Source: Octopus vulgaris (taxonomy: Eukaryota). From it: a stretch of DNA of 64,000 nucleotides. The DNA lies in the NCBI GenBank assembly GCA_951406725.2, contig OX597837.1, forward strand, positions 46,500,001-46,564,000, in the 5' to 3' direction. Of the stretch, positions 15,931-61,189 are shown one piece after another (the first letter of the stretch is position 1; the number at the start of each line of letters is the position of its first letter). The notes under the pieces were generated by a model. The model saw only the letters and a program-made list of their open reading frames with translations. It ran no database searches and was not told where the DNA came from. The position numbers were made by a program, and so were the translations under genes.

Positions 15931-16016
15931 CCGATCTTACCAATTGGTTTCACACTAAGGATTCAAATGTGTTAGATAACAGACAGATTATGTAACACTG
16001 CACTCTTCAGAGACGG
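15931..16016 (-). ncRNA. Type I hammerhead ribozyme motif (PLE-type)
   Basis: CCGTCT-CTGAAGA-GTGC...GTGT-GAAA-CCAATTGG-TA-AGATCGG: stem I 6 bp with one bulge, wobble-rich stem II, palindromic stem III ACCAATTGGT, GUA triplet. Confidence 0.75.
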
Positions 16017-16618
16017 TAGTTATGGAATGAAATATGGCAACTGCTCTCTATTGTTGGAGGTTTTCCAACATCATCATATATATATATATATATATATATA
16101 TATACACACACACACACACACACACATACACAGTATCACATTGGGTCAACATAAATACAGAGAATAACAGGAAAAAAATAGAACAAATCCAGTATGTGTT
16201 TGGAAATAAACTTCTGAAGCTGCTTAAAACACCCATTGATCAAATGTGTAAGACATGAATTTTAAAAAAATTGAACCTAACTCAGGAGCAGTATAAATGG
16301 ATAGTAAATATACACAGAATTCATAGTTAATATCTTAATTCCTTTAAAACTGCTCTTTCTCACACCACTCTGCTATTCATCTTTATGGGATTAGTTCAAG
16401 TGATTCTCCAGTAATATTTTGATGAAATCTTGCAGGAGAAATAATTCTTTCCTCTATACAGAGTGTATTTATGAGATAGCTGGGTAAGTAAAATAATGAA
16501 ACATACAGCCCCTGAGACACTTGTGTAATTCTACAGTGGAATTGTATACATATTGGTAAAAACGGTAAGATAACAAAAGAAAGAAAGAGACCTCAATATT
16601 ATGTAAATAGAGTAAATT

Positions 16619-16778
16619 TATCTGTAAAATAATATGTGACAATTATTCAGTAACCAAGATAAAACTCTGAGATGACCAGATAACCAAAGAGATGGTGTTG
16701 TGGATTTCCACCTTGGCATCCGAAACTCAGAGTTTTATCTTGGCTACCGAATAATTGTCACATATTATTTTACAGATA
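16619..16778. repeat. 53-bp inverted repeat (51/53), 54-bp spacer
   Basis: 16619-16671 versus 16726-16778. Confidence 0.95.
16676..16743 (+). ncRNA. Decayed hammerhead (core CCAAAGA instead of CTGAAGA)
   Basis: CCAGATAA-ccaaaga-GATG...CATC-C-GAAA-CTCAGAG-TT-TTATCTTGG: all three stems recognisable, core mutated. Confidence 0.5.
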
Positions 16779-16793
16779 TATATATATATATAT

Positions 16794-17096
16794 ATGTAAA
16801 CATTATTGAATACACATACACAATGCATGAGTTTTGCTAGTTCGCAAGTCAGCTGTGATTCGATGTGGTGGAGGTGACCCTCTCAAAGTGCTGATGTTAA
16901 AACACCTGAAAGAATGGCAAAACATCATGACTTGTGAATGGGACTTGGGGCAACTTGTCTCACCTGTCTATGAATATGACTTTCAGGTGTTCTAACAGCC
17001 AGCACTTTGAGAGGGTCACCTCCACTGTGTTGAATCGCAGCCGACTGGCAAACTAACAAAACACATCTATTGTGTATGTGTATTTAATGTTTACAT
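16794..17096. repeat. About 118-bp diverged inverted repeat, about 67-bp spacer
   Basis: GTGGAGGTGACCCTCTCAAAGTGCTG / CAGCACTTTGAGAGGGTCACCTCCAC core is exact. Confidence 0.9.
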
Positions 17097-19285
17097 CACT
17101 TGCACTGCTTCTAATTCATACGTTAATATATATATATATACATATATATATATATAGGCATACTCAAACACACAGACATGTGTATGTGTAAACATAGGTG
17201 AGTGTGTGTATAGATGTATATGTTTATATGAATGTCTATGTATGTGTAAGAAGATTCTTGAAAATAAAAAATGTAGGGGACGGAAGTCAAACATGCTTAG
17301 CTAATATTTGTTAGTAAACGTTAGTAAAGGTTTTCCATATTTAAGATTTAGGTGGAGGGTGGGGGATAAATCTAAAAGCCCTGCTCGTTACTTAGCAACT
17401 ATTGGGTGCAGGATTGATTTTTGTCACATATATTTCATCTATTTTCAAGTTAAGCTGATACAAACAAAATAAATAGCAGATGAAGTAAAATCCACATTGC
17501 TTCATGAAATTGTGAAGTAAGATGGAAGAAGGTGAATGAAGTGAAAAAAAAAATTACAAAAGAAAACTTTCCAACTGGAAAAATAAATGAAATATAAAAA
17601 AAAGAAACAAAATGAAAATGTTATCGATTTTTTTTTTTAAACAAACCTGAACAAAATATGTTGATTGCATCAAATGTATATATGATTAACATTCAGCATT
17701 AAAAATTTGGTCCCTATCATCATCATCATCATCGTTTAACGTCCGTTCTCCATGCTAGCATGGGTTGGACGGTTCGACCGGGGATCTGGGAAGCCAGATG
17801 GCTGCACCTGGCTCCAGTCTGATCTGGCAGTGTTTCTACAGCTGGATGCCCTTCCTAACGCCAACCACTCCGTGAGTGTAGTGGGTGCTTTTTACGTGCC
17901 ACCAGCACAGGGGCCAGGGGAGCTATACATGTATTTCATTGTCCTCATTCACTTGTTTGAAGTTCATTTTTCTGCACAGTATGGGTTGGACAGGGACTTG
18001 TTAAAAGCAAGATTCATTCTCTCTGTTTTTTTCTCCATGGATTACCAAGAAAAAATATTTGAGAAAAGTAAAAATGAATTTGGTGTGGAGAGGAAGAGAA
18101 TTAAAATATTGAGAATGTGTTTTGTGGGTGAAACAAACATAAAAAATCAGAAGAAATTTAGGAAAAAAATAGTGTGAGGGAGCAGAAATGTCACCTTGGA
18201 CATGCTAGAAAGAATAGGTAAAGTACAGGATTTCTTGGAAAAATTTCTTTTAAGTTTTATGTCAAAGATCAGGTTTTTAAATATGCTCATCATAAAACAC
18301 AAATTACACAATAGAAAAAGAGCATTTCAATTGGATTTGAGCTTTAGATTTGTGCATACACACTGCAAGAAATAGCATAATTCACACAGAAGTTTTACCT
18401 ACAGTGTGTGTGTGTGTGTGTGAAAGGAAGTTATTTTATGGCATTCTTTTGTTTGAAGAAACAAAGTTATCAACTCGACAAATGGGGGATCATATGATTG
18501 TTCATTAATTTCTGCAAAATTCTTTTAATTTATTTATTCTCTTTTAAGAGAGCAGAAATTGAAAGAGAGGATAAAGCGAAAAGGCGACAATTGCTTTGAA
18601 GTGAGAGGAGAAAATGAAAGATGTACATGCATATGAAATGGATGTATGTGTGTGTGTGAGAGAGAGAGAGAGAGAGAGAAAGTGAGTGAAGGTGTGCATT
18701 GTGATGTATGAATTTTTTTGCATGTATATATGCATCACTCACTCACTCTCTCTCACACACACACCTTTCATATACACATACATAAATAGGCAGAGGTAAA
18801 GAATACATACACCACCCGTTTTCAGCATAACATAACCCTAAATACCAGGTGTGCTTATTCTTTACCTTCGGCCATAAATGCATATGTATACATACATCTT
18901 TTCTGTGTGTGAGAGAAAGAGAGAGTGATTGTATTTCCTCATAACATACAGAGAAATGGATGTCTTTTAATGCAATTTTTGGGGGGTTGTGGTTTATTTT
19001 AATACAATATTTATGTGTACAATTTCATAAATGTTTGTCTGAGTAGAATTCTACGTGTGCATGAAACATCAGACGAAAGTGAAACATTAGAGGCAAATTG
19101 AAATATTGTCAAAAAATGACCTCAAATTGTGCGACCCAGCCTAGTTGCCAAGGTTATTTTAGTAGTAAAAAAGAGTTGTTGAGTGAAAAACATAGTTTAT
19201 TTGGTAGATAGATAATAAGCAGCACCTTTGTTTTGTTATAACTCTCAAAGTTGTCAACAAACTGTCATCTAAATCAGCTGTTTTG

Positions 19286-58867: not shown

Positions 58868-60274
58868 GTAAGATTCTCTTTGGTTATTTACTACTTATGA
58901 ATTATTTTAATCATTTGTGGAAGCACAGCAGATCTCTCTCTAGATATACCTTTTAAAAAGCAAATGTCACAAAAATGAGGGTTCCACCTTCATATGTACT
59001 CTCATAAAAATTCAGTCGATTTAAATTATTCTTATAAATCACTATTGTTCAGAAAAAAAAAAAAATCGAAATATATCGATTCTTCTCAGCCATACCTCCT
59101 TCACTCAACCATTTCTTAGATACCGGCGACAGCTCTCCACACGTCGTCATGTGCTTTCGTTTATACCCAGAGTGCACTCATACCCTGCTACAACCCATCA
59201 TAAACAAATACATGTACACATAATTATGACAGGAAGGGTTTCTTGTCTAGACACAAAACCATTTCTCAGCTACAGGATGGATGCATTCTTTTTAAACCAT
59301 CCTAGCATTTTACTGGTATTTATTTTACCACCCTGTTGGAGATTGATGAAAATAACACGATTTCTGTCGGGATTTCTATGATAACAAACACCTAATGGTT
59401 TCTTATAAAGGTTTTGACCCCTGTTGTAGTTCATTGGCGGGTAATGAATTTCTGAGTTGCGGTGCGTATATTTTCAAAAAAAAAAAAAAAAAAAATTAAC
59501 AAAGTATGAAGTAAACAACAGTTTGTCTCAATTGCAAAACCTTATTCTTGATAAGGAGTGGGTTTGAGGACGGTCAATTATCCCATTACCCTCTCTTGCT
59601 GACACTTAATGGCGAACCAACGAGGAAGACTCTATATAACCATTCGACTGGTTAGAAATGACAGTCAAATTTTTCTCAAATTCAATTCTGCAGCTTTAGA
59701 TAAGCAAGGCCAAGTTAAGCAACATGGTCAATGATGTACAAAAGAGTGGAATGGTCTTTGGACACTAGCCTCGTCGACCAGGTTTGACCTGGGGTTACAC
59801 ACAAAAACTCCAACTGGCATTTAATAGTAACTACATCAGTAATGATACCATAACTAATTAATAACAATAGTTATTAATAACAATTAAAATAGATGAAATT
59901 TTGATTTAGTAGAGGGGTAACCGTTGGAGTGAATTTATTTATTGTTGCTTATTTTGTCAACACCAGATGAAGTTCAAGAAAAATGTGCATACTCGGAGTG
60001 GATTTGAACCATGCACAGTGAAGTAATGAAGTTAGATTTAATACAGCACCCAACTCAGTATAACTATTGCCATTATTATCACCCTTTAATAGTTAACGTG
60101 GTTTTTCCCTTCCGGACAATGCATATGTCTGTAGGAAGTGTGTGAGACAACGTCATGGAAAAACGATTAACAGAAAAGGAGAATTAGAGAAGGAACACCT
60201 CTCGTCAGCCATGGACACCAGAATCAGAATGATTTCGGCACACATAAGTCCAGGACTTTAATCCCATTGGATCG

Positions 60275-60710
60275 GTTTATGTATATCTATATAGGTATGT
60301 ACATATATACATATATATATATATATGTATGTATATGTATGTATGTATGTATATGTATGTGTGTATGTATGTATGTATGTATATGTATGTATACATATGT
60401 ATATATATGTATGTATATATATATATATGTATGTATGTATATATATATATATATATATATATATATATATGTATGTGTATGTATATATATATGTATGTAT
60501 ATGTATATATATATGTATATGTGTGTATGTATATATATATGTATGTATATGTATATATATATGTATATGTGTATGTATATATATATATATGTATGTATGT
60601 ATATATATATATGTATGTATATGTATGTATATATATATATATAAATATATATGTATGTATCTCTCTCTCTCTCTCTCTATATATATATATATATATATGT
60701 ATATATATAT
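60275..60710. repeat. Compound (TA)/(TATG) microsatellite
   Basis: Directly visible; similar tracts at 46270-46690, 55810-56300, 61210-61560, 61945-62150. Confidence 0.95.
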
Positions 60711-61055
60711 AGGAGTGGCTGTGTGGTAAGTAGCTTGCTTACCAATCACATGGTTCCAGGTTCAGTCTCACCGCGTGGCACCTTGGGCAACCAAAGCCTT
60801 GTGAGAGTGGATTTGGTAGACGGAAACTGGAAGAAGCCCGTTGTATATATGTATATGTGTGTGTATGTTTGTCCCCCTAACATTGCTTGACAACCAATGC
60901 TGGTGTGTTTACATCCCCATAACTCAGTGGTTTGGCACAAGAGACCAATAGAATAAAAACTAGGCTTACAAAGAATAAGTCCTGGTGTCGATTTGCTCAA
61001 CTAAAGGTGGTGCTCCAGCATGGCCACAGTCAAATGACTGAAACAAGTAAAAGAG
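60711..61055 (+). mobile_element. SINE family A
   Basis: Same head and tail as 36068-36460. Confidence 0.85.
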
Positions 61056-61101
61056 TATATATATATATATAATCAAAATAAGCAACAAGAATGACTCCGG
61101 T

Positions 61102-61189
61102 AATTTGGTACGATCGTTTCATACTACATCATTTTATTAAATGTAAGCATTACAACAGATTTAAGATGGTGAGTACTCATCAGCCAATT
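61102..61189 (-). ncRNA. Type I hammerhead ribozyme motif (PLE-type), antisense in ELKS intron
   Basis: AATTGG-CTGATGA-GTACT...AGTAT-GAAA-CGATCG-TA-CCAAATT: palindromic stem III ACGATCGT, GUA triplet. Confidence 0.8.

Follow-up and report, generated by a model that had tools for sequence, protein, structure and literature searches.

Type I hammerhead ribozymes are known from the pseudo-LTRs of metazoan Penelope-like elements (PLEs) (Cervera and de la Pena 2014, PMC4209133). According to the literature, an intact element carries its hammerhead in the pseudo-LTR, and dimers formed through the palindromic stem III are believed to cleave the tandem transcripts. Most PLE hammerhead motifs are single and probably come from truncated PLEs (PMC4209133, 2014). 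The motifs described below resemble them in their type I layout, in a stem III that is short and palindromic, in flanks rich in U, in the many unrelated families within one genome and in being mostly single, dispersed copies. In the example descriptor of the same paper, stem II may have 3-7 bp and its loop 3-10 nt, and GAAA and UH are two letters apart, whereas domain II was 31-58 nt long here and a 6-8-nt stem III insert was found between GAAA and UH. Catalytic core and topology agree with Rfam Hammerhead_1 (RF00163), but the motifs score under its gathering threshold. Resemblance to the Neptune PLEs, which have a C-terminal nuclease (Arkhipova 2006, cited in PMC8557442), extends to a reverse transcriptase (RT) profile match, the conserved letters around the core, a tail followed by (TA)n and an inverted tail copy. 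The locus differs from these elements in lacking an intact ORF, nuclease and linker, and in its longer domain II. Non-LTR retrozymes (PMC7229834; bioRxiv 10.64898/2026.07.22.740005) are likewise short, non-coding, multi-copy and PLE-related, with type I hammerheads; they are defined by tandem hammerhead units, whereas none of our motifs is tandem. Hammerheads in PLE tails are known; what differs here is the long domain II.

The window, a stretch of 64,000 nucleotides of Octopus vulgaris DNA, contained the following features (motifs are named after the first position of their core).

15931-16016, minus strand: 16010 motif, type I hammerhead (core 16010-16004)
16622-16675, minus strand: inverted copy of the 16684 tail, directly upstream of the 16684 motif
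16676-16776, plus strand: 16684 motif, decayed hammerhead with two letters changed in its core (16684-16690) and a 31-nt domain II
32518-32574, minus strand: 32574 candidate, both cores and a 4-nt palindrome, unconfirmed
42834-43791: remnant of another type of PLE, inverted in its 5' part (minus strand 42834-43595, RT and thumb; plus strand 43633-43791, C-terminal end of the nuclease); called the second PLE type below
43859-43899, plus strand: 43865 motif, decayed hammerhead of the short, minimal type, with a 15-nt domain II
49947-50008, minus strand: 50003 motif, type I hammerhead (core 50003-49997)
54345-54833, plus strand: broken Neptune-type PLE RT fragment (45 bits, reversed control 4.5)
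55071-55159, plus strand: 55077 motif, type I hammerhead (core 55077-55083)
57878-58867, plus strand: exon coding for part of an active-zone protein of the CAST/ELKS (ERC) family (PF10174, Cast, in Pfam with E 6e-17; GT donor 58868)
61072-61213, minus strand: host segment of the 61183 motif, 142 bp between two (TA)n tracts
61101-61192, minus strand: 61183 motif, type I hammerhead, best preserved (core 61183-61177; domain II 56 nt; GAAA at 61120-61117; stem III palindromic; cleavage predicted after 61109)

The four main motifs (16010, 50003, 55077 and 61183) and the decayed motif at 16676 are real sequence features. All four main motifs contained CUGANGA, GAAA and UH in order at the positions claimed in an earlier note on this DNA. 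A palindromic stem III, which that note had ascribed to most motifs, was perfect in two of the four, 16010 (8 nt) and 61183, and contained one wobble in the near-palindrome of 55077, but was not found in 50003. Around the core, all three stems can pair in 61183 and 55077; the closing stem II was weak in 16010 and 50003. Domain II measured 52 nt in 16010, 33 nt in 50003 and 58 nt in 55077. The closing pair of 61183 is G.U; this is not decay, since no alternative was listed in contigs of its family, and the position is without a Watson-Crick pair in 21 of 45 reference motifs too.

Motif frequency was compared with that in dinucleotide-shuffled sequence for the window only, and was above it for the joint type I descriptor. 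This descriptor, composed with prior knowledge of the sites, matched 2-3 loci against 0.00-0.04 expected from local shuffles, and in five of eight settings none of 300 shuffles matched. The 50003 motif passed none of the eight settings and 55077 passed five. The core heptamer alone was mildly enriched (41 against 29.7 +/- 5.4 expected). With an independent model, made from 23 of 45 distinct ORF-attached hammerheads of other animals only, 61183, 50003 and 16010 ranked first to third among 22 window matches (rough E values 5e-5, 0.013 and 0.04); 55077 was missed. In a weight-matrix scan the score was reached by one of 150 shuffles for 61183, one for 16010, 13 for 55077 and 34 for 32574. The 61183 and 16010 motifs are individually strong, 50003 and 55077 moderate.

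The decayed copies listed in the earlier note fared unevenly. The one at 16676 was confirmed: six Watson-Crick pairs form stem I (2 of 200 shuffles equalled the motif), stem III is near-palindromic, a 42-nt tail leads up to (TA)9, and the 12-mer pattern spanning GAAA and stem III is present in 11 of 92 Neptune-type loci. The 43865 motif retains both cores and stem II, but its stem III is broken and U16.1 is missing (model E 1.2); its support is positional only. The other two were not above chance. The 32518-32574 candidate has neither stem I nor stem II and its constrained fold lies 13 kcal/mol above the minimum; 19796 lacks stem II. Chance is the best reading for 19796 and possibly for 32518.

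The earlier note had also missed that in no main motif is the hammerhead the fold of lowest predicted energy (z -0.6 to +1.0 against shuffles). The hammerhead folds exceeded the minimum by 2.3-6.8 kcal/mol, with a median of 3.4 in the reference set. With RF00163, 61183 scored 15.1 and 50003 11.9 bits (gathering score 34), and two others gave no match. At the gathering score Rfam found no hammerhead in the window, and at E up to 10 none was among the 150 of 213 matches listed. In the 61183 family, per-site variants kept or wobbled the pairs at three stem places; these tables are unlinked, and a two-sided compensatory change is unreadable from them. No variant of at least 5% fell on the 13 core positions, but as just 12 variable sites were listed over about 140 nt, this is not significant. 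A covariation count on the reference motifs is circular because they were chosen for pairing.

In plan the motifs match hammerheads that autonomous Neptune-type PLEs carry in their 3' UTR. As a reference, hammerheads behind intact Neptune-type ORFs were collected; these elements were assigned to the clade by the linker motif of their proteins rather than by phylogeny. Of 72 ORF ends followed by 200 nt or more of sequence, a strict search gave a hammerhead for 47 and a looser search for 10 more, leaving 15 without. A GTA site was present in 37 of 45 distinct motifs, and in 18 of the 45 the site was followed by (TA)4 at a distance of 32-104 nt. Domain II was 10-31 nt long in this set and 31-58 nt in the five hammerhead-shaped motifs of the window (the main four and 16684), four of which exceed the reference range. 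This length in all main motifs had been overlooked in the earlier note. The long second arm is the only unusual trait of the five motifs, and may be a lineage trait of their families.

The proposed association with TA tracts was supported. Three of the four main motifs had a tract within 200 nt, compared with 15-20% of spans placed at random (post hoc p 0.011-0.027); from 50003 the nearest was 475 nt away. Only in 61183 (37-nt tail) and 16684 does such a tract stand at the tail end; none was found within 200 nt of the tail ends of 16010, 50003 and 55077, and one lies about 60 nt upstream of 16010. Traits of PLE insertion were the TA tail end at 61183 and 16684, the inverted tail copy at 16622, an arrangement described in PMC8557442, and the inversion at 42834-43791; 50003 showed none. 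The five motifs carry five different stem III sequences. That the motifs share no primary sequence was nearly right: two of 45 pairwise comparisons gave p < 0.05, one of them through an exact 11-mer upstream of both 16010 and 61183.

Two sites are flanked by PLE coding remnants, which the earlier note had overlooked. The 43865 motif follows the stop of a GIY-YIG remnant by about 70 nt, and an ORF ahead of 55077 is likely. The 54345-54833 fragment (51% identity to P0024; thumb, linker and nuclease missing) is on the same strand as 55077 and ends, at a degenerate TA/CA tract, 244 nt before its core. The two may represent separate insertions, since this microsatellite and about 280 missing residues lie between them. 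The 42834-43791 remnant scored 80 and 26.5 bits (reversed control 3.2) and was also found by tblastn. Window profile searches detected no PLE coding remnant near the other four sites, 16010, 16684, 50003 and 61183. Pfam recognised none of the four PLE fragments. With the 43176 RT fragment a word-based protein search found nothing and an exhaustive search gave 23 matches. When loci of the second PLE type were sought, 32 weak matches to bacterial-titled records came up; these were not used, and 43865 is therefore without a reference set. The Neptune profile had no match in viral contigs.

We consider it probable (about two in three) that the motifs are solo 3' ends of several PLE families, remaining from insertions that lost their 5' part and landed in or close to TA tracts, and that they are now likely inert. 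The source families of the long-armed motifs are likely Neptune-type. The nuclease would nick a TA tract; reverse transcription would begin at the 30-45-nt tail, copy the hammerhead and usually halt soon after, and an inverted tail copy would sometimes be added during insertion. In intact elements 53-509 nt separate the stop codon from the core. The upstream host segments at four window sites (12-75 nt) are mostly shorter, and a missing ORF is what truncated copies are expected to show. As the five different stem III sequences leave no matching partner in cis, host transcripts are expected to be cut weakly or not at all.

The earlier note had interpreted the motifs as many small non-coding ribozyme-bearing families. 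The PLE and TA link and high repetition of one host, 61183, stood, but non-coding families were not demonstrated: two sites lie behind PLE coding remnants, none is tandem, and missing ORFs are expected from truncation. The ribozyme motif is indeed 'largely unannotated', but solo hammerheads of PLEs, dispersed as here, have been described (PMC4209133).

Copy number outside the window was measured for one host of five. The 61183 host (30 nt upstream, motif and 37-nt tail) is a dispersed multi-copy family, found in 1391, 1045, 1070 and 68 contigs of runs X1, X5, X7 and X10; the first three runs are DNA-type, each with more than 1000 contigs, and X10, guessed to be RNA, is silent on expression. 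Some copies run past the tail into common sequence (14, 10, 10 and 3 contigs at one place), which is unlike the start of the window's insert and absent from the window. This shared run-on indicates a unit longer than that insert. The 5' side of the family was unread, being skipped as repeat. Depth was 4-20-fold lower over the 5' half of the motif, which may reflect truncation or an alignment break and was given no weight. The window's copy has private changes at two places where 72-99% of the depth reads otherwise. Self-comparison of the window revealed no second copy of any hammerhead host, and its motif patterns had no match in viral contigs or prokaryote genomes, as expected of animal repeats.

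The family is very large for a 142-bp segment and has TA on both sides. Some hosts, chiefly 61183, could thus be monomers or fragments of short non-autonomous, retrozyme-like PLE derivatives mobilised in trans, a possible but clearly less probable reading. Solo retrozyme monomers have been described (bioRxiv 10.64898/2026.07.22.740005), four sites are without an ORF, 55077 could be an internally deleted element, and the 61183 run-on would also agree with a tandem unit some few hundred bases long. Against this, the window holds neither a hammerhead-bearing tandem repeat nor, at any site, the tandem units that the definition of non-LTR retrozymes demands, the upstream segments are so short that they would not be expected to reach an ORF, and two sites follow coding remnants. 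A bolder proposal, that octopus genomes hold tens of thousands of uncatalogued long-armed hammerheads, some on short non-autonomous elements, and that perfect-palindrome copies cut intronic RNA by pairing in trans between nascent transcripts, is improbable.

It is very unlikely that the long-armed motifs are 3' ends of Naiads, whose 'half cores' with 35-50-nt spacers would then be overlooked full hammerheads. Naiads favour (TA)n, and the supplement of PMC8557442 labels those of Octopus vulgaris and Euprymna HHR_half_core. However, the 3' ends of two Octopus Naiad consensus sequences were by eye unlike any window motif, two window stem III motifs were absent from the supplement (line breaks could mask a match), and the RT beside 55077 is Neptune-type.

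The 61183 motif lies in the intron that follows the CAST exon, on the strand opposite to the gene. Nothing beyond location supports the suggested ribozyme layer around a neuronal gene, and the window gave no evidence for a role on the adjoining gene. (A look-up of the CAST segment returned generic coiled coils and was not used.) Selection for the motifs as cleavage sites regulating the CAST/ELKS transcript, to which the intronic location and the presence of the 61183 family in orthologous-type runs of organisms B and C could be fitted, is scarcely tenable. Three of the five motifs are antisense to the gene, of the two sense motifs one has a broken core and the other the weakest stem III duplex (-3.2 kcal/mol; median in the reference set -8.2), the window's 61183 copy carries private changes, and the hammerhead folds lie above the minimum. 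Equally hard to sustain for the four main motifs, and already refuted for 16010 and 61183, is a chance arrangement in AT-rich repeat DNA: the core heptamer is just mildly enriched, no motif folds better than shuffles, and 50003 and 55077 each fail one scan, but the joint descriptor, the independent model and the 61183 repeat family speak against it.

Five motifs in 64 kb, under the Rfam threshold and beyond the published example descriptor, suggest that animal hammerheads are undercounted where domain II is long. They are natural variants for the effect of a 30-60-nt domain II on cleavage and dimer formation. If they are solo 3' ends of truncated PLEs, their biology is that of ordinary PLE debris; if short non-autonomous families or cleavage of host transcripts were true, they would represent a new retroelement class for cephalopod repeat annotation.

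Complete hammerhead cores were found, as the earlier note had claimed, at the four main motifs, named by core start: 16010 (-), 50003 (-), 55077 (+) and 61183 (-). Every chance test was confined to the sequence of the window. The core heptamer by itself was scarcely enriched (41 in the window versus 29.7 +/- 5.4 in shuffles). Joint descriptors, written with the sites already known and tried in eight settings, detected 2-3 loci against <=0.04 expected and in 0 of 300 shuffles; 50003 failed in all settings. A covariance model built on 23 of 45 hammerheads from other animals ranked 61183, 50003 and 16010 as the top three of 22 matches in the window (rough E-values 5e-5, 0.013 and 0.04) and did not recover 55077. 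In a weight-matrix scan the scores of 61183 and 16010 were each reached by 1 of 150 shuffles, that of 55077 by 13. Rfam gave no hammerhead match at threshold in the window.

Among the decayed candidates, the motif at 16676-16776 (+), core 16684, stood: a scan tolerating two core changes returned only this site and 61183, versus 0.035 expected. The motif with its core at 32574 (-) did not stand out from chance, its weight-matrix score being reached by 34 of 150 shuffles, nor did 19796, which has no stem II. The hammerhead was the minimum-energy fold of none of the four main motifs, and none folded better than shuffles; constraining the fold cost 2.3-6.8 kcal/mol (reference set described below: median 3.4, 90th percentile 5.5). 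Proximity to TA tracts was confirmed for three of the four (<=200 nt, versus 15-20% of random spans), but TA at the tail end was present only for 61183 and 16684. Two hammerheads with nothing else in common, 16010 and 61183, are preceded by an identical 11-mer on the minus strand, at 16057-16067 and 61193-61203 (2 occurrences in the window versus 0.04 expected); in both cases the TA tract on the upstream side is 8-10 nt away.

Profile searches in six frames identified three remnants of Penelope-like elements (PLEs):

42834-43595 (-), reverse transcriptase (RT) and thumb, with 43633-43791 (+), nuclease end: 5'-inverted PLE remnant
24106-24788, RT (+) and nuclease end (-): second 5'-inverted PLE remnant of the same type
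54345-54833, same strand as 55077: Neptune-type RT fragment (45 bits versus 4.5 for the reversed control)

The last profile comprised 121 proteins arranged, like Neptune elements, as RT, cysteine linker and nuclease end, and was presumed to be Neptune because the linker motif matches that described in PMC8557442. The fragment stops at a degenerate microsatellite 244 nt upstream of the 55077 core; about 280 residues are missing, so that the two may belong to a single element with a deletion or to separate insertions, one on top of the other. The decayed short motif 43865 (43859-43899, +) starts about 70 nt past the stop of the first nuclease end; by eye, part of it (43880-43910) has a short inverted copy about 120 nt downstream, at 44020-44045. 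No recognisable hammerhead was seen at 24106-24788, and the searches of the window revealed no PLE remnant near 16010, 16684, 50003 or 61183. Immediately upstream of 16684 lies an inverted copy of its tail (16622-16675), an arrangement reported for PLEs in PMC8557442.

For comparison, 92 Neptune-type reference loci (L001-L092) were collected from public contigs: one search gave 443, of which the best 80 were taken and 77 retained, and another added 15. Where an ORF end had >=200 nt downstream, a strict search found a hammerhead in 47 of 72; a looser search added 10, and 15 had none. The cores sit 53-509 nt past the stop codon. The 45 distinct strict motifs have a domain II (second arm) of 10-29 nt; 37 carry a GTA site, and 18 have (TA)4 at 32-104 nt after the site. 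Domain II is opened by a U.U mismatch, not the usual G-C pair, in 18 of the 45. A 12-mer across GAAA and stem III of 16684 recurs in 11 of the 92 loci. The window motifs differ from known PLE hammerheads by their long domain II: 31, 33, 52, 56 and 58 nt in the four main motifs and 16684. The longest reference value, loose matches included, was 31 nt (a single motif, counted twice); the difference gave a Mann-Whitney p of 1e-4 with a reference that is biased to one profile and is not known to include an octopus locus. One published example descriptor allows up to near 25 nt, and another 7-17-nt spacers.

These long arms made it tempting to regard the motifs as ends of Naiad elements, for which PMC8557442 gives half cores at 35-50 nt and TA targets; however, the Octopus Naiad ends compared did not match the window motifs. 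The Octopus Naiad consensus 3' ends in its supplement contain both hammerhead core words, in reverse order, within a paired region, which is not the type I layout and is absent from the window. Retrozymes are defined by tandem units (PMC7229834 and bioRxiv 10.64898/2026.07.22.740005), and the window has no tandem hammerhead unit. Our literature search found no report of octopus PLE hammerheads; the word hammerhead is absent from the passages searched in two cephalopod repeat papers (PMC13282606, PMC8967140), and the PMC13282606 supplement may hold relevant repeat families.

Contigs were placed on one region only, 61060-61236, which includes the 142-bp host of 61183 (61072-61213, -). This yielded 1391 contigs for organism A, 1045 for B and 1070 for C, and a run guessed to be RNA gave a further 68, which makes the host a member of a large family. 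Summed depth divided by the depth of long contigs, a division advised against for such data, suggests, as a rough estimate, thousands to some ten thousand copies. Among the 12 variant sites listed, none fell in the core and three in stems, where they keep, wobble or shift the pair; no two-sided stem change was readable. Some copies continue beyond the tail into common sequence. This differs both from TA and from the beginning of the window insert, and was not found in the window; the unit must therefore exceed 142 bp.

The window, animal DNA with a G+C content of 36%, is rich in microsatellites and repeats. Palindromic inserts of 60-300 bp (13613-13783, 16796-17094, 48941-49165, 32405-32467; two abut TA tracts) contain no hammerhead and may be MITE-like or head-to-head PLE tails. 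A tandem pair of near-identical 227-bp copies (97%) occupies 10950-11403, with no core heptamer listed inside. Mobile-element fragments lie at 50060-50461, 5748-6023, 38506-38781 and 4705-5235. By Pfam, one is part of a mariner-type transposase and another part of an LTR-type RNase H; by eye, there are a further transposase-like frame and a LINE-like C-terminus adjoining 50003. The DNA probably comes from an octopus: a retroelement fragment from the window has Octopus bimaculoides proteins as its best and fourth matches. The SINEs are presumably octopus-like.

One coding exon defines the gene setting:

57878-58867: CAST/ELKS active-zone gene (Pfam Cast match; splice donor present)

61183 is the sole site certainly intronic; those upstream of 57878 may or may not belong to the transcript. 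Cleavage of the host transcript is unlikely, because the stem III sequences of the four main motifs and 16684 all differ, tandem units are lacking, and three of the five are antisense to the gene, the sense ones being the weakest.

PLE hammerheads reside in the pseudo-LTR, are poor as monomers and are thought to cleave tandem transcripts as dimers (PMC4209133 and the review PMC6765202); PMC4209133 also describes solitary, scattered hammerheads from many unrelated families and interprets them as truncated PLEs. The layout, coding context and repetition of the motifs are the demonstrated part of the mechanism. The motifs are real and are most likely unremarkable PLE ends, apart from a modest peculiarity of structure. 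Insertion would be primed at TA tracts, the tail and hammerhead would be copied first, and copying would then usually be cut short, leaving solo PLE 3' ends.
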